Assembly (NCBI GenBank): GCA_964291655.2
Contig: OZ219802.1
Span: 800,001-864,000 of the forward strand
DNA from: Chloroflexota bacterium
Lineage (GTDB): Bacteria; Chloroflexota; UBA11872; VXOZ01
DNA: 64,000 bases
Direction: 5' to 3'
In this document: positions 1,144 through 24,497 of the stretch, in pieces
Numbering within the stretch: the stretch's first letter is position 1
How the letters are laid out: the number at the start of each line of letters is the position of its first letter
Notes under the pieces: model-generated
What the model was told of the DNA's origin: nothing
The model's input: the letters and a program-made list of their open reading frames with translations, nothing else
Databases searched by the model: none
Program-made: the position numbers and the translations under genes

Positions 1144-2547
1144 TTACTGAAGCACCGAGTTCGCCAACGATTCGTTCAGCACTTCCTGAGCCAACTGATC
1201 GGCCTCTTTAAGCGCCTCTTGGATGGTCGTTTCCTTCTTGAAGATGGTCTGTGCCATGGTGTTGTGAATGCCGATCAGGCCGATGCCGCCCGGCGCTCCA
1301 ACGACGAAACCGGCAACCGCCATCGAGTCCACGGCCTCCTTGCGCAACGGATCGCCCTGGATGAAGTCCTCGCTGTTGGCTACGGACTTGCGCATGGGCA
1401 ACCGGCTCTTACCCAAAGCGTGGCGGAGGTCTTGCGGCGCCTCGAAGAGCCACTCGATGAACTTAAAGGCCTGCTCCGGATTCTTGGAGCCGTTGGGGAT
1501 GATGTTGTCGCCGCAGCCGCTATACGTCACGGTATTGCCACCCGGCGGCAAAGGCGCTGGAGCTGCGCTGTATTCGAGCTTGTCGAAGCCCGCTTTGTAG
1601 TTGGGCTGGTGCGGCGTGTCATAGATCGTATAGATCATGCTGGCGCCGCGGTCGGTGAAGACAATCCGGGGATCGACATCGCCTCGGAATTCATCTGCCG
1701 CCAGAAAACCATCCTGCAAATCATAGATGCGGAGCATATGCTCGAATGCGGCCACCGTTGTCTCATTGTCGAGCGTCGAGGTGCTGTCGTCCGCACTAAT
1801 AATGGCGCCGCCCAACTGCCAGACCGCCACCATCCAGCACGCGAAGATACTGCCGGGGCCCCAGTGCGGGACGTAGCCAAGCTGGGAGAGTTTCGCGCCG
1901 TCTTTCTTCACCAGCCTGCCGATGGCTGAGTAGAGGTCATCCCACGTGGCGGGCGGATTCTCCGGATCCAGACCGGCCTCGATCAGGTTTTCGTGGCCGA
2001 TGAAGAGCGTGCGGGCGTCGGGCGTAAAGGGCATCCCAAACTGGCGCCCCTGCCACACGGCATCATTCAAAATCTCTTCCCACATATCGCCGGTATCTAT
2101 GGTGGCAGAGGCCTTGACCATTTCGGTCATCTCCGATGCCAGGCCACCATGGGCAAGGGTCTTGATGGTGAAACGCGGCGCGAATGACATATCGGGCGCG
2201 GCGTCGGCCGCCACCGCAGCGGGCAGTTTCTCAAACGTCTCGCTCCACGGCGTAGGCATGGTGTTGATGAAGATTGCGTCCTGCATCGAGTTGAACTCGT
2301 CGCGCAGTTCCAGTCCCACACCTTCAGTGAACGACGCCCAGAAACCATTGAGCGACCAGAAGTCAACCTGCACGGTCTCCATCTTGGGCGCTTCCGCCTC
2401 GGCTTCCTTCTCTTCCATCTCAGGTGCTTCTTCCACAGGCGCGGCTACCTGCCCACATGCGGCCAAGAGTCCCACACTTCCAAGCATGCCGGCGCCAATG
2501 CCAAGCATCCGCCGACGGGTCACGTTCACGTCCGTTGCCTTAGACAT
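1144..2547 (-). CDS. Extracellular solute-binding lipoprotein (ABC family 1, sugar type), Tat-like signal
   Basis: TRRRMLG...LLAACG signal/lipobox, Glu/Ala/Pro linker, 'AAVAADAAPD', 'PPATWDDL', 'AFKFIEWL'. Confidence 0.88.
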   Translation of the reverse strand: MSKATDVNVTRRRMLGIGAGMLGSVGLLAACGQVAAPVEEAPEMEEKEAEAEAPKMETVQVDFWSLNGFWASFTEGVGLELRDEFNSMQDAIFINTMPTPWSETFEKLPAAVAADAAPDMSFAPRFTIKTLAHGGLASEMTEMVKASATIDTGDMWEEILNDAVWQGRQFGMPFTPDARTLFIGHENLIEAGLDPENPPATWDDLYSAIGRLVKKDGAKLSQLGYVPHWGPGSIFACWMVAVWQLGGAIISADDSTSTLDNETTVAAFEHMLRIYDLQDGFLAADEFRGDVDPRIVFTDRGASMIYTIYDTPHQPNYKAGFDKLEYSAAPAPLPPGGNTVTYSGCGDNIIPNGSKNPEQAFKFIEWLFEAPQDLRHALGKSRLPMRKSVANSEDFIQGDPLRKEAVDSMAVAGFVVGAPGGIGLIGIHNTMAQTIFKKETTIQEALKEADQLAQEVLNESLANSVLQ

Positions 2548-19211: not shown

Positions 19212-20162
19212 ATGGTTAATGGCGACATCAAGATATTCTCGGGTATGGCCAACAATCCATTGGCAGCCGAGATGGCCGACCTGCTCGGGACGGGTCTCGG
19301 TGAGGTCAACATTCAAGAGGCTCCGGACTCTGAGACGCTGGTAATGGTGAACGAAAGTGTGCGCGGCTGCGACGTATACGTCGTGCAACCAACCTCGGCG
19401 CCCGTGAATGACAACTTGATGCAACTCTTGCTCATTGTTGACGCGCTGCGCCGCGCTTCCGCCAAGCGCATAACCGCGGTGATACCCTACTTTGGCTATT
19501 CCCGCCAGGAACGGATGGCCCACGGGCGCGAGCCGATCAGCGCCAAGGTGGTGGCGGACATGCTCCAATCCGTTGGCGTGAACCGCATCATCCTCACCGA
19601 CATCCATGCACCTGCGATGCAGGGCTTCTTCAATATCCCGTTCGAAACCCTCTCGGCTGTACCCCTGATCATCGACTATTTGAAGCAACAAGACCTTTCG
19701 GATTCCGTCATTGTCGCGCCGGACGTCGGCCGCGCCAAGCTTGCCGAGCAGTACGCGGAACGCTTGGGGGTGCCCCTAGCCCTAATCCACAAGGCTCGCG
19801 AATCCGCCACCACGTCGCGGATCGTCGGCATGATAGGCGACCTAAAGGGTAAGTCGCCTATAATCATCGATGACATCATCACCACGGGCGGTACCATCGT
19901 CGAGACCGCCCACGCCGTCATCAACGCCGGCGCCAGACCTCGGTTGCGCTTGGCGGCAGTACACGGTCTGCTTGCCGGCACTGCTCCGGACCGGCTGAAT
20001 CTCGACTTCATCCAAGAGGTGATCCTCACCGATACTGTGCACATTCCGTCAGATAAGATTACGCCCAATATGACTATCCTCTCGGTGGCACAACTCTTCG
20101 CCGAAGCCATACACCGCGTGCACAATGAGACCTCGGTGAGCGGACTCTACCTCCTCACGTAA
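19212..20162 (+). CDS. prs: Ribose-phosphate pyrophosphokinase
   Basis: NESVRGCDV, VNDNLMQLL, PYFGYSRQ, DIHA, PRPP-binding IIDDIITTGGT. Confidence 0.95.
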   Translation: MVNGDIKIFSGMANNPLAAEMADLLGTGLGEVNIQEAPDSETLVMVNESVRGCDVYVVQPTSAPVNDNLMQLLLIVDALRRASAKRITAVIPYFGYSRQERMAHGREPISAKVVADMLQSVGVNRIILTDIHAPAMQGFFNIPFETLSAVPLIIDYLKQQDLSDSVIVAPDVGRAKLAEQYAERLGVPLALIHKARESATTSRIVGMIGDLKGKSPIIIDDIITTGGTIVETAHAVINAGARPRLRLAAVHGLLAGTAPDRLNLDFIQEVILTDTVHIPSDKITPNMTILSVAQLFAEAIHRVHNETSVSGLYLLT

Positions 20163-20323
20163 AGCCACCCACTGGCGTATCCGAGAGCGCAGATACGCAA
20201 ACTGCCAGACTGACTTTGGCAAAACCGTCCCAATTGTAGGCGCGGTTACAAAAAAACGTCTCTACTTTCGTTATACTGGGCATGGATAGGGGAGTAGTGC
20301 GTTGCGTGGTAAGGGCTTATCCT

Positions 20324-21079
20324 ATGCTTGTTGACGTTGGCATTGCATTTGGCGCCGGCATTCTCTCATTTTTATCGCCCTGTTTTCTCCCCCTGGTACC
20401 GGCATATCTTGTCTATCTCGGTGGCCGCCACGTCAACGCGGTCCGCCACGAAAAGTCTGCCCAACGGGCCGTCCTCATCAACGCGCTGGCCTTTATACTG
20501 GGCTTCGGCACCATCTTCGTCGCCCTCGGCATTGCTATCACGTTTGTTGGCCTTGCCTTTCAGCAAGGTCTTCCCACGATGCGGCTTGTCGGTGGCGCGC
20601 TTCTCGTCATCTTTGGGCTTAGCTTTCTGGGATTCCTGCGTATTCCGTGGCTCCAGCAGATTTTGCAACGGGAAGTCTCGCTCCGCAATACACCGCTGGG
20701 CCGCATAGACACGGAGAAAACCGGTCCGATCACATCTTTCCTGATCGGCCTGGTCTTTGGCACCGGCTGGACGCCGTGCGTGGGGCCGATTCTGGGCGCC
20801 ATTTTGCTCCAGGCATCCGGCGCTGACACGGTGGCCCGCGGCGGAATCTTGCTGGCAATCTACGCATTGGGAATGGGCATCCCGTTTCTCGCGATGGCCG
20901 CCGCCGTGGAGCGCGCTGCATCCCTCATGAACTGGCTCAAGTCCCACATGCTCGTAGTTGAGCGCACAAGCGGAGTCTTCTTGATCTTGATGGGAATTGC
21001 TGTGGCAACGAATTTCCTGGCGATGCTGTCTGGAGTTCTCGGCTTTTTCTCATTAGAAATCTTGGCATTTGAGCGTTAG
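20324..21079 (+). CDS. ccdA: CcdA-type transmembrane thiol-disulfide electron transporter
   Basis: SFLSPCFLPLVPAY and GWTPCVGPILGAIL (both redox Cys intact), ~6 TM helices; alternative start at 20282. Confidence 0.93.
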   Translation: MLVDVGIAFGAGILSFLSPCFLPLVPAYLVYLGGRHVNAVRHEKSAQRAVLINALAFILGFGTIFVALGIAITFVGLAFQQGLPTMRLVGGALLVIFGLSFLGFLRIPWLQQILQREVSLRNTPLGRIDTEKTGPITSFLIGLVFGTGWTPCVGPILGAILLQASGADTVARGGILLAIYALGMGIPFLAMAAAVERAASLMNWLKSHMLVVERTSGVFLILMGIAVATNFLAMLSGVLGFFSLEILAFER

Positions 21080-21318
21080 CATGAGTGATGGCGACAGGAA
21101 GATTGTTACACTCGATCCTTGGGGCTCGCCTTATGCTTCGAAGTGCGAGCACGGGTTGCGGCAAAGCATCCGATCCAACGCCGTCGCCGCAGCTCATGGC
21201 AGCGCCGAAAACGAAGGCCGTCTCGCGATGACGGCGAGTTGAAGCAGGCAGATTCCCAAGCATTTCGGTTTTTGCGGGGATAGTATTCGGGGATAGTACC
21301 AGCAAAGGGAGGAGACCT

Positions 21319-21984
21319 ATGCGACGACGTTCTGTATGCGCATTGCTGTTCAGCGGCGCGTCCGTAGCCGCGCTCGCGGCGTGCGGCGGCGGCTCAACGC
21401 TGCTCGATACGCAAGAGGAGCCCGCGCCGGCGAAGGAAGAGGCCAAGGCCGAGCCGACCGCTGCTCCGAAGGAAGCTGAGGCAACGGCTGAGCCCGAAGC
21501 GAAGGCGGAGCCTGAGCCGACGGCAGCGCCCGAACTCGACCTGCCCAACCTTGGCAAGGCGCCGGAGATTACGCTCACGCAATGGCTCAATTCCGATGCC
21601 ATTACGTTGTCCAGCTTGGAAGGCAAGGCCTCTGCCTTGATTGTCTTCTGGACCTACACCTGACCGGTGTGCCGCGGCGAAATCCCCAGTTGGGTGGATA
21701 TCCAGAACACGCTCGTTGACGACAGTTTCAAGCTCATCAGCATCCACTTCCCGGCCTTGGGCGCATCCACGGACGTGAGCGTCATTGCCGAGAAGTCCGC
21801 GGAGCTCAATGTCAATTTCCCGGTCGCAATCGATAATGACCTGTCAGCCTGGAACGACTACGGCAACAATGCCTGGCCGGTTGCCTACGCAGTCGATAAG
21901 CAAGGTGACATTCGCTTCAAGCAGGTTGGCGCCGGTATCGACTCAATCCTTGAAGTGATTGAAAAGATGAAGGCTGCGGGCTAG
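21319..21984 (+). CDS. Putative selenoprotein: lipoprotein TlpA/DipZ-like redoxin with UxxC active site (TGA 21661-21663 read as Sec), 221 aa
   Basis: Track ORFs 21319-21663 and 21667-21984 are in frame, joined by TGA-CCG. Read-through gives FWTYT-U-PVC-RGEIP, ISIHFP, FPVAIDND, YGNNAWP, VDKQGDIRF. MRRRS...LAAC signal; GGGAGG RBS. Confidence 0.85.
21679..21702 (+). promoter_or_regulatory. Candidate bacterial SECIS hairpin
   Basis: GAAAUCCCC-AGUUG-GG-U-GGAUAUC: AUCC/GGAU plus CC/GG stem, bulged U, apical GU 25 nt after UGA; conserved in the paralogue. Confidence 0.6.
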
Positions 21985-22020
21985 CGTACCTGCTGATTCT
22001 TAGACATCGGTCGAAACAAG

Positions 22021-22065
22021 CAAGCCGTCTGCGGTGTGCTCATCACACCGCAGACGGCTTGTTTT
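22021..22065. terminator. Intrinsic (probably bidirectional) terminator between the convergent redoxin genes
   Basis: Perfect 18-bp stem caagccgtctgcggtgtg/cacaccgcagacggcttg, 5-nt loop, followed by TTTT. Confidence 0.8.
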
Positions 22066-22174
22066 AAGTGTGCGGCAAGCCCACATGCCGAATTCTTGCC
22101 GCTGCCTCTTAAAAGCAGTGACCTGCGCCTGCAATGTGCGTCCTCGAACGACCGAGGAGCTTCTGCTTCAATAG

Positions 22175-22214
22175 ATACAGTACCCAGTGTTCATGTGAAC
22201 ACTGGGTACTGTAT
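22175..22214. repeat. Perfect palindrome with 19-bp arms (terminator or protein-binding site)
   Basis: atacagtacccagtgttca-tg-tgaacactgggtactgtat. Confidence 0.7.
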
Positions 22215-22272
22215 TCGTGTCTCTGCGACAGCTTTGCCGGAATCTAGAACAAGCGGATAGCGACACTGCCGC

Positions 22273-22944
22273 TTAGCCCAACTCCTTGAGTTGCTTCACG
22301 GCATCAACCACCAGTTCGAAGTTGCCGCCGCCGAACTTTGCAAAGCGTATATTGCCCTGCCGATCAATGCCGTAGAATGCCGGCCACGTGCGGGTGCCAT
22401 AGGCGTTCCAAAGCACCTCATCGTTGTCGACAACCACCGGATAGTTGACGCCGAGGGCGTCGGCCCGCTCCTTAATGCCGCTGATGTCTCGGGAAGAACC
22501 GGCGTGCGGAAAGTGCACGGAGATCAGCTTGAAGCGGTCATCGTGGTAGGTATTGAAGAGATCCACCAAACTGGGGATTTCGCTGCGGCAGACCGGTCAG
22601 GTGTACGTCCAAAACACAATCATGGCAGCGGCCTTGCCTTCCAAACTTGCCATGGTGATGGGCTCGGAGTTGAACCAGCCGGTGAGCGTAATTTCCGGCG
22701 CCTTGCCAAGATTGGGCATATCGAGCGTGGGTGCTGCGGTGGCGGCCGGCTGTGCCTCCGTTTTGCTATCAGCCTTTGCTTCTTCTTGCGCCGGAGCGGC
22801 TGTTGGCTGCGCCGCGGAATCTTGCGCAGAGCTTGCGGGTGCCTCGTCCTCGGTATCCAGCAATGAAGACCCACCGCCACATGCTGCGAGCGCGGCTGCG
22901 GACGTGCTGCTTAACAGTAGAGAGCAAACTGAACGTCGTCGCAT
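22273..22944 (-). CDS. Putative selenoprotein paralogue: lipoprotein TlpA/DipZ-like redoxin with UxxC (TGA at 22599-22597), 223 aa
   Basis: Track ORFs 22597-23031 and 22273-22569 are in frame. Read-through gives FWTYT-U-PVC-RSEIP, ISVHFP, YPVVVDND, YGTRTWP, IDRQGNIRF. MRRRS...LAAC start at 22944. Confidence 0.85.
22558..22581 (-). promoter_or_regulatory. Candidate bacterial SECIS hairpin (second copy)
   Basis: GAAAUCCCCA-GUU-UGG-U-GGAUCUC at identical spacing from UGA. Confidence 0.6.
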
Positions 22945-23198
22945 GCCTATCCTCACCTTTCTCTTTCGTGTAGGTTTGCTGCCGCAATTCCTCGACGCAC
23001 CTCGTACCGGAAAACTGCTCTGCCGGCACAATCGCGCTTGGCGTTGCGACTATCGCTCTTCGCTTACTTCTATCCTAAACGAGTACAAGATGGAACTTCC
23101 ACCCCCACTCCCCCCCTACACCTTGACGACAAACAATTGCGAATTACCTGTGATAGTCTTGTCCAAATAGCAAGCGTAGCGTCCAGGAGTCCCGCACA

Positions 23199-24497
23199 AT
23201 GGACAACACCACTCTCCCCCAACCGGAACCGACGCCCGGCAATACCGCCTGGTGGACCCATGACCGCTTCGGCCTCTTCATCCACTGGGGCATCTATGCT
23301 ATGGCCGCGCGCCACGAATGGGTGAAGAAATACGAGCAGATCAGCGACGCGGACTACCAGCCCTATTTCGACCACTTCGACCCCGATCTCTACGATCCCA
23401 AGGCCTGGGCGCGAACCGCGCGAGAGGCCGGCATGCGCTACGTCGTCCTTACCAGTAAGCACCACGACGGCTTCTGCCTGTGGGACAGCCAACTCACCGA
23501 CTACAAGGCTACAAACACCCCCGCCGGTCGTGACCTCCTGAAGCCGTACGTCGAGGCCTTCCGCGCCGAGGGACTCAAGGTCGGCTTCTACTATTCGCTG
23601 ATCGACTGGCACCATCCCGAATTTCCCGTGGACGGCGTGCATCCCCAGGCGAACGATCTTGCCTTTCGAGAGGCGACCAAAGACCGCGACGTGCGCAAGT
23701 ACGCGAAATACCTCCACGGCCAAGTGCGCGAGATCCTTACGATGTTCGGCACCATCGAACTCCTCTGGCTCGACTTCTCTTATTCACAGCAAGACTACGG
23801 CTGGAGCAAGGGAAAGGGCAAAGACGACTGGCAGAGCGAGGAACTCATCCGCATGGTGCGGGAGATTAATCCCGACATCATCATCAACAACCGCAGCGAA
23901 ATCGAGCAAGACTTCCATACGCCGGAGCAATTCATCCCGCCGAGCTGGCTGCACGTGGACGGCAAGCCCGTCAACTGGGAAGCCTGCCAGACCCTCAACG
24001 GCTCCTGGGGTTACCACCGCGACAACCTGGACTGGAAGTCGCCGCAACTGCTGGTGGAGATGCTTATCGATTGCGTTTCCAAGGGCGGCAACATGCTTAT
24101 GAACGTCGGCCCTACCGGCCGCGGTGAGTTCGATCCGCGCGCGCAGGCGACGCTGGCGGAAATTGGCGCGTGGATGCGACAGCACGGGCGCGCGATCTAC
24201 GGCTGCACGCAAGCGCCGTTCACGCCGCCACGGGACTGCCGCTATACGTACAATCCCAAAACGAACCGGCTGTACCTGCACGTCTTTGCCTGGCCGCTCA
24301 AGTACCTGCACCTGCCGGGGCTGCGCAACCGCGTGCGCTACGCCCAACTCCTGAACGACGGCTCCGAGGTCAAGACCTTCGACTTCACCCAGCACCACCG
24401 CTACCCCAGCGGGGGCGAAGACCTGCTTACGTTGGAATTGCCCATCCAGAAGCCGAGCGTGCATACGCCGGTAGTTGAACTTTTCCTAGCTGATTGA
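23199..24497 (+). CDS. Alpha-L-fucosidase (GH29)
   Basis: RFGLFIHWG, TSKHHDGFCLW, YYSLIDWHHP, LWLD, SWGY, VSKGGNMLMNVGP. Confidence 0.95.
   Translation: MDNTTLPQPEPTPGNTAWWTHDRFGLFIHWGIYAMAARHEWVKKYEQISDADYQPYFDHFDPDLYDPKAWARTAREAGMRYVVLTSKHHDGFCLWDSQLTDYKATNTPAGRDLLKPYVEAFRAEGLKVGFYYSLIDWHHPEFPVDGVHPQANDLAFREATKDRDVRKYAKYLHGQVREILTMFGTIELLWLDFSYSQQDYGWSKGKGKDDWQSEELIRMVREINPDIIINNRSEIEQDFHTPEQFIPPSWLHVDGKPVNWEACQTLNGSWGYHRDNLDWKSPQLLVEMLIDCVSKGGNMLMNVGPTGRGEFDPRAQATLAEIGAWMRQHGRAIYGCTQAPFTPPRDCRYTYNPKTNRLYLHVFAWPLKYLHLPGLRNRVRYAQLLNDGSEVKTFDFTQHHRYPSGGEDLLTLELPIQKPSVHTPVVELFLAD

Follow-up and report, generated by a model that had tools for sequence, protein, structure and literature searches.

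A 64,000-nucleotide stretch of a Chloroflexota bacterium genome (GenBank assembly GCA_964291655.2, contig OZ219802.1, positions 800,001 to 864,000 of the forward strand), hereafter the window, carries an intact ccdA gene followed by two convergent paralogous genes, and each of these two genes encodes a redoxin domain that is interrupted by an in-frame TGA codon. We read the two gene products, called redoxin A and redoxin B here, as selenocysteine (Sec)-containing, lipid-anchored and outward-facing thiol-disulfide oxidoreductases of the DipZ/TlpA branch which would be recycled by the adjacent CcdA, and the probability of this reading was put at about 0.72. That A and B are genuine Sec proteins is very probable from the sequence comparisons given below. 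They add unannotated members, in a split-DipZ arrangement, to an already known kind of selenoprotein, and they do not represent a new class of system.

Organization of the locus

All positions below are those of the window. The genes and the features of the two redoxins are as follows.

20282..21079, plus strand: ccdA, encoding a six-helix CcdA/DsbD-type thiol-disulfide electron transporter of 265 aa (intact open reading frame, Pfam DsbD_TM)
21319..21984, plus strand: redoxin A, putative lipoprotein selenoprotein of 221 aa with a DipZ/TlpA-type thioredoxin fold and UPVC active site (read-through translation, Pfam)
21319..21384, plus strand: predicted signal peptide of A with lipobox LAAC and Cys22 (AALAACGG kept in orthologues)
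21661..21663, plus strand: UGA codon for putative Sec115 of A (in-frame TGA; Cys in relatives at the same column)
22273..22944, minus strand: redoxin B, putative lipoprotein selenoprotein of 223 aa, paralogue of A with UPVC active site (Pfam, paralogy)
22879..22944, minus strand: predicted signal peptide of B with lipobox LAAC and Cys22 (sequence, orthologues)
22597..22599, minus strand (read 22599-22597): UGA codon for putative Sec116 of B (in-frame TGA)

This layout agreed with a preliminary description made from the letters of the window alone, which had reported two convergent paralogues after ccdA, each with a lipobox, a linker and a redoxin domain broken by TGA. The open reading frames (ORFs) of the window placed both A and B downstream of ccdA. 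The same description was right in calling ccdA intact, but its start at position 20324 is an internal Met of a frame that opens at 20282. The CcdA of a congener aligned from residue 2 of the 265-codon form, so the real form may be the longer one, with 20324 as a possible alternative start. The ccdA product matched DsbD_TM (PF02683) with 69 bits over profile positions 4-216 of 219, and its SPCFLP and WTPCVGP sequences are both of the conserved Cys motifs, with one Cys in each repeat half.

With the TGA read through, A and B were 58% identical from end to end, and both N-termini had the form MRRRSVC...AALAAC-GGGS. Lipoprotein signal peptides end in a lipobox of the pattern [LVI][ASTVI][GAS]C, and L-A-A-C at residues 19-22 of both proteins, which was conserved in the orthologues, fits this pattern. 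The genome also encodes lgt (170 bits) and lspA (104 bits), and A and B are predicted to be lipoproteins acylated at Cys22. The lipobox is followed in both by a linker of about 50 residues rich in Ala, Glu, Pro and Thr, and then by the redoxin domain. The Pfam AhpC-TSA/Redoxin matches spanned the TGA with scores above the cut-offs (residues 80-207 of A and 81-205 of B), and AhpC/TSA was the top Pfam match. Both contain the motif FWTYTUPVC, in which U occupies the first position of the CxxC motif. The ATG of A is preceded, at a distance of 6 nt, by the Shine-Dalgarno sequence GGGAGG.

Selenocysteine machinery and genetic code

Absence of Sec machinery had been named beforehand as one of the findings that would overturn the selenoprotein interpretation, and the genome (3.47 Mb in 2 contigs, 97.6% complete) was searched for it. 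The selA (562 bits), selB (357 bits), selD (383 bits) and tRNA-Sec (67 bits) genes were all found with scores above the curated cut-offs, and ARAGORN called a tRNA-SeC with the anticodon TCA. Of the 1884 open frames in the genome with 300 codons or more, 601 ended in TGA, which meant that the code is not reassigned. The selD gene (G000:C2:2457313-2458242, locus L013) carries one in-frame TGA of its own; Sec-containing SelD occurs in other bacteria.

Conservation of the TGA codon within the genus

Sixteen other species of the genus were searched, and the ccdA-linked locus was found in fifteen of them. The remaining genome (G014, 69% complete) showed only a third paralogue, paralogue C, which is treated below. 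With the window genome included, genes at both the A and the B position were present in 14 genomes and a single gene in 2 (G010 and G011). TGA stood at the same column in 30 of 30 A/B copies from these 16 genomes, while protein identity went down to 57% and synonymous sites were near saturation (dS 0.66-0.70). Past this codon the frame ran for 106 codons in all 13 A copies, without insertions or deletions, and for 107 codons in all but one of the 17 B-type copies (108 in that one). For this downstream frame, the ratio of nonsynonymous to synonymous substitution rates (dN/dS; Nei-Gojobori, all pairs) was 0.157 for A (dS 0.66) and 0.141 for B (dS 0.70). These ratios indicate that the frame downstream of the TGA is under purifying selection, and since both its length and its dN/dS are conserved, A and B appear to be neither dead nor truncated.

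We also considered that the TGAs could be true stops, so that the genes would be pseudogenes, would give only lipoproteins of about 115 aa, or would have their UGA decoded by a near-cognate Trp or Cys tRNA with no selenium involved. The public gene calls, which show separate short ORFs, are in line with this, and so is a second TGA in the B copy of one species, which could mark decay there. This explanation is nevertheless highly improbable, because the TGA was kept in every copy at near-saturated synonymous divergence, the downstream frame had a fixed length and a dN/dS of about 0.15, the Sec machinery was complete, compensatory changes occurred in the hairpin described below, and relatives had Cys, not Trp, at the column in question.

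The second in-frame TGA was seen in the B orthologue of G004 (locus L040, minus strand) at the Trp codon of LTGWFNSEP. It may have arisen by a sequencing error or through decay of the gene in this one species, or it may be recoded as well. In G016 (locus L047), both ccdA-linked copies were B-like, which could have come from gene conversion or from an independent duplication.

A hairpin resembling a selenocysteine insertion sequence downstream of the UGA

A short hairpin resembling a selenocysteine insertion sequence (SECIS) was present behind the UGA of both genes.

21679..21702, plus strand: SECIS-like hairpin of A, core 21682-21699 (AUCC-CC, loop AGUUG, GG-U-GGAU with the U bulged)
22558..22581, minus strand: SECIS-like hairpin of B, core 22578-22561 (AUCC-CC, loop AGUUU, GG-U-GGAU with the U bulged)

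The hairpin started 21 nt past the U of the UGA in every Sec copy. The stems of A and B consist of 6 bp plus one bulged U, followed by two lower pairs beyond a 1x1 mismatch. According to the legend of Fig. 2 in PMC13188914, the bacterial SECIS (bSECIS) model has an apical loop of 3-9 nt, an upper stem of 4-16 bp, a G within the first two loop positions, a distance of 16-37 nt from the UGA to the loop and a minimum free energy (MFE) of -7.5 kcal/mol or lower. Against the model as that legend gives it, both hairpins fit with a 5-nt loop, a G as the second loop nucleotide with U after it, and a spacing of 24 nt; in a 33-nt window the MFE of B was -7.7 kcal/mol, within the limit, and that of A narrowly missed it (see below).

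Within the genus the outer pair of the stem changes from A-U to G-C, and this corresponds to Ile ATC becoming Val GTC together with Asp GAT becoming GAC. The change was found in both paralogue lineages with no exception. The covariation in the SECIS is thus an Ile/Val change coupled to a synonymous Asp change, a compact case of RNA structure constraining protein sequence. In other families of the phylum, the Sec homologues had a hairpin at the same place with other stems, namely AUCCCG/CGGGAU, CUUCCCC/GGGGAAG and CUCCCUC/GGGGGAG, and a further one had the stem AUUCCUUC/GAAGGAAU with a one-base register shift. The loops of these hairpins from outside the genus also contained GUU.

The hairpins were then compared in an alignment of 39 of the 43 windows collected; loci L065-L068, in which the helix had another register or shape, were left out. 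One of the 39 rows, L073, came from an unpublished genome (G191), and the covariation result was independent of this row. All 144 cells of the four-pair core were paired, and the pair types were AU:24/GC:8/CG:4 and CG:33/UA:3. None of 500 shuffles reached the covariation score, and controls slid along the sequence were paired in only 14-56% of cells. As a control for single sequences we asked for a hairpin with 6 bp or more whose loop begins at +28 to +37 and contains GU, and 36 of 38 distinct Sec windows passed. The mean MFE was -8.9 kcal/mol for Sec windows vs -6.6 kcal/mol for Cys windows, despite the lower G+C of the Sec windows. The fold signal was confined to the short local hairpin and to the comparison across sequences.

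Relationship of A and B to DipZ

The best solved relative in HMMER searches was the C-terminal part of Mycobacterium tuberculosis DipZ (2HYX, 5CYY), with E=1e-26 over residues 74-219 of B, and the next ones were YkuV (3e-18), SOQ1, NHLRC2 and ResA. The U of B aligned to the first Cys of the CINC motif of DipZ, and the Trp-cisPro pair W107-P108 was invariant in alignment A1. A and B would therefore have a thioredoxin fold in which U stands where helix 1 begins and the cis-Pro loop is conserved. The locus resembles DipZ (Rv2874) in the FW(T/A)Y-x-C-x-x-C context, in the Trp-cisPro and in a redoxin tied to a CcdA-type domain. DipZ, however, fuses CcdA and the redoxin in one protein, whereas here they are separate genes and the redoxin is duplicated and apparently lipid-anchored; A and B moreover have Sec for the first Cys, P-V in place of I-N between the two redox residues, and end without Thioredoxin_10. 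From these comparisons the locus is taken as a split and shortened DipZ relative, not a DipZ protein, and the likeness to DipZ suggested in the preliminary description was borne out by the match to 2HYX and by the CcdA fusions in 31 of 80 distant relatives (see below).

Cys homologues had FWTY[GST]CINC where Sec homologues, from four other families of the phylum, had FWTY[GT]UINC or a similar motif. Relatives therefore carried Cys or TGA at exactly the Sec column of A and B, and the alternation that had been expected there was found. The search beyond the genus left the genus itself out, and one of the two patterns used had Cys in its back-translation, so that almost only Cys forms were returned: in 80 distant loci the column was Cys in 76 and Sec in 1 of the 77 motif matches, and 5 loci had no match. 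Most Cys relatives, like DipZ, have Thioredoxin_10 after the redoxin domain.

Paralogue C is a third Sec paralogue of the genus. It lies away from ccdA at G000:C2:1286743-1287195 (locus L029, about 1390-1962, plus strand), between the end of a long ORF, which looked like leuS by eye, and a gene for an RRM-type RNA-binding protein, and it has the motif FWTYGUINC and the lipobox LSAC. Its TGA was kept in 17 of 17 genus genomes, and the loop of its hairpin is GGUCU. In a quick maximum-likelihood tree, A and B grouped together (SH-aLRT 99) and then with C (99) in one clade, and Sec and Cys forms were interleaved elsewhere. At least six changes between Sec and Cys were needed in this tree, of which the well-supported branches force only one. 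A, B and C are all predicted Sec lipoproteins, and the 16-17 genomes searched yielded no Cys copy of this branch. The odds are about even that the whole Chloroflexota genus has moved a DipZ-type envelope reductase module onto selenium, which would give a CcdA-fed, Sec-dependent extracytoplasmic pathway whose SECIS RNA shapes the protein sequence E-I/V-P-S-x-V-D beside the active site. If this is true, CcdA must reduce a selenenylsulfide across the membrane.

In another family of the phylum (f19), the four loci L069, L071, L073 and L075 had Sec redoxin domains with FWT[FY]GUINC in long open frames. Pfam found NHL repeats in L075, an architecture like that of NHLRC2/SOQ1. The hairpin of the f19 loci, L073 of the unpublished genome G191 among them, was well formed, with 7 bp and the loop AGUU at the same offset.

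Linkage and fusion to CcdA

All 16 loci of the genus had ccdA next to the redoxin genes. In G010 (L045) and G011 (L044), the single redoxin gene follows ccdA directly and in the same direction. Because ccdA is directly upstream and co-directional in these single-copy genomes, it is reasonable to think that the locus began as a ccdA-redoxin operon and that a duplication and an inversion followed. Elsewhere in the same class, ccdA was the next gene in 10 of 13 Cys-type loci, and the three exceptions all came from one family (f4). The conserved linkage that had been proposed as a check was thus present both in the genus and in most of its class relatives. Among the 80 best Cys relatives, which came from many phyla, a CcdA-like domain was in the same frame in 31 and adjacent in 7, and the remaining 42 had no CcdA within 2.5 kb or no motif match. 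One of the fusions was checked by Pfam and consisted of DsbD_TM, Redoxin and Thioredoxin_10. A CcdA-redoxin fusion within the same class was also considered and was rejected, as the frames of 400-480 aa in question proved to be redoxin plus Thioredoxin_10 with ccdA as the next gene.

It is mainly this pattern of fusion plus synteny that suggests CcdA as the electron source, and the neighbouring CcdA is probably the reductant of A and B. CcdA beside membrane-anchored thioredoxin-fold acceptors is a textbook arrangement. As in the known CcdA pathways with ResA, CcmG, TlpA or Etrx, CcdA is encoded here beside (predicted) membrane-anchored acceptors and has kept both essential Cys residues. Unlike in those pathways, the acceptors would use Sec, ResB was not found in the genome (97.6% complete), and better CcmG candidates are present elsewhere.

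Proposed mechanism and alternatives

In the proposed mechanism, SelB and Sec-tRNA(Sec) would read the UGA, guided by the hairpin inside the coding sequence with G-U in its apical loop. A and B would be exported, acylated at Cys22 and tethered to the outer face of the membrane through the flexible linker of about 50 residues. The attacking selenolate of U-P-V-C would then reduce a disulfide in its substrate, although a sulfenate or a peroxide might also be the target. A selenenylsulfide would form between Sec and the resolving Cys, and the neighbouring CcdA would re-reduce it with electrons from cytoplasmic thioredoxin. The Sec insertion, the lipidation, the electron transfer from this CcdA, the role of A and B as two specialised acceptors proposed in the preliminary description and the kind of substrate are all parts that we infer.

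Several results weigh against this reading. At the RNA level, the hairpin of A (-6.9 kcal/mol in the 33-nt window) narrowly missed the energy limit of -7.5 kcal/mol taken from the legend in PMC13188914, and 20 of 84 distinct Cys windows also passed the loose hairpin criterion. Folds of 60 and 101 nt after the UGA were no better than shuffles (z -0.71 to +1.01). A permissive Rfam scan of 20000-23500 found no SECIS and no other credible family, its matches being weak miRNA models on the palindrome at 22175-22214 only. On the protein side, Thioredoxin_10 (PF17991) was not matched by Pfam in A or B, both of which end after the redoxin domain. As for the partner, ccdA was in the fetched flank of 0 of 14 loci with TGA-bearing homologues outside the genus, some of which encode Trx-NHL proteins, and because of this the Sec trait does not in general go together with a ccdA neighbour. 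A second ccdA, at C1:410714, could be the donor instead.

The main functional rival is that A and B are mainly extracytoplasmic peroxidases or sulfenate reductases, forming a selenium-based envelope antioxidant that CcdA only recycles. Sec at the attacking position is typical of peroxidases, and the best Pfam match is AhpC/TSA. The genome has better DsbE/CcmG-like Cys proteins, so cytochrome c maturation is probably independent of A and B. In the passages of PMC1088965 and PMC9312934 that we drew on, selenoproteins with UxxC in an AhpC/TSA domain are filed as 'Prx-like'. The motif of A and B, however, is the thioredoxin-type UxxC and not the peroxiredoxin TxxU/TxxC, and their closest solved relatives (DipZ, YkuV and ResA) are disulfide oxidoreductases, and we regard a mainly peroxidatic role as unlikely.

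It was also considered whether A or B could fill the place of a missing CcmG/TlpA-type reductant that serves cytochrome c maturation or the Sco copper chaperone. The P-x dipeptide of UPVC recalls the active sites of CcmG and TlpA. A System I cluster at G000:C2:2386000-2403000 (L082) encodes CcmF, CcmH, a BNR-repeat protein, CcmA, CcmB and CcmC, with SCO1/SenC nearby, and no thioredoxin-like CcmG gene was found among its ORFs of at least 90 aa. But two Cys proteins of the genome fitted the DsbE model with 87.6 and 70.4 bits vs 20 bits for A, and B had no match to TIGR00385. Neither A nor B lies near ccm genes, and no ccm link was found at paralogue C or at the Sec homologues from outside the genus, among the loci read. 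Because the two Cys proteins fit so much better, a CcmG role was rated low and is more doubtful still than the peroxidase role. An oxidoreductase pair fed by the adjacent CcdA thus stayed the preferred reading.

Relation to known selenoproteins and annotation

In the selenoproteome literature drawn on (PMC13188914, PMC9312934, PMC1088965 and PMC1794560), a 'Prx-like thiol:disulfide oxidoreductase' family (PF00578, UxxC/UxxU) and a 'Redoxin family protein' family (PF08534, UxxC) are catalogued (PMC13188914, PMC9312934), and UxxC selenoproteins of the Prx-like and redoxin kinds are already in print (PMC13188914, PMC1088965). A and B share the Pfam domains and the UxxC placement of Sec with these families as described there, in a comparison by domain and motif description. 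The preliminary description had therefore overrated the novelty of the locus. The full-text literature searched held no description of ccdA linkage, lipoprotein anchoring or DipZ affinity, and the supplementary tables of the surveys may list such sequences. None of the NCBIfam selenoprotein models scored over its cut-off on A, B or C.

Gene callers had been expected to report these genes as fragments, and the public protein collection indeed contained only pieces of 97-115 aa and no full-length form of A or B. The fragments are unnamed or called 'hypothetical protein', and one row has the name of an unrelated enzyme. Three genes in each genome of the genus are thus public only as paired fragments, as are their relatives in four or more further families of the phylum, and a model built from FWTY-x-U-x-x-C plus the hairpin would correct the annotation. 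The locus is well suited to asking what benefit Sec brings at the attacking position of an exported reductase and whether CcdA can recycle a selenenylsulfide, and the Cys-type relatives fused or adjacent to CcdA are built-in comparators.

Other features

Two strong inverted repeats were found between the stop codons of the convergent redoxin genes.

22175..22214, no strand assigned: perfect inverted repeat of 19 bp with a 2-nt spacer, downstream of B, a possible terminator
22018..22064, no strand assigned: inverted repeat of 21 bp followed by a T run, a likely terminator between the convergent A and B

On the minus strand, the palindrome at 22175-22214 has no T run after the repeat. Upstream of paralogue C (L029, about 1000-1330) there are short repeat units, one frame of which reads ...PFDKLRANG... 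and ...LRQAQGER... several times, suggesting a repeat element, either dispersed or tandem.

The genome also contains a ResA-like gene with a TGA (G000:C1:187833-188267; locus L031 1459-2577, plus strand), which has the motif WASWUGC and a TPR tail, and its best NCBIfam match was WAxxUGC_long (NF041054) with 160 bits at a cut-off of 300. A and B scored 33 and 27 bits with this model (cut-off 300) and differ from its members in having U-x-x-C, not U-G-C, and no TPR tail. What they share with these ResA-like WAxxUGC selenoproteins, of which this gene is a relative in the same genome, is a TlpA/ResA-type fold with Sec in the active site.

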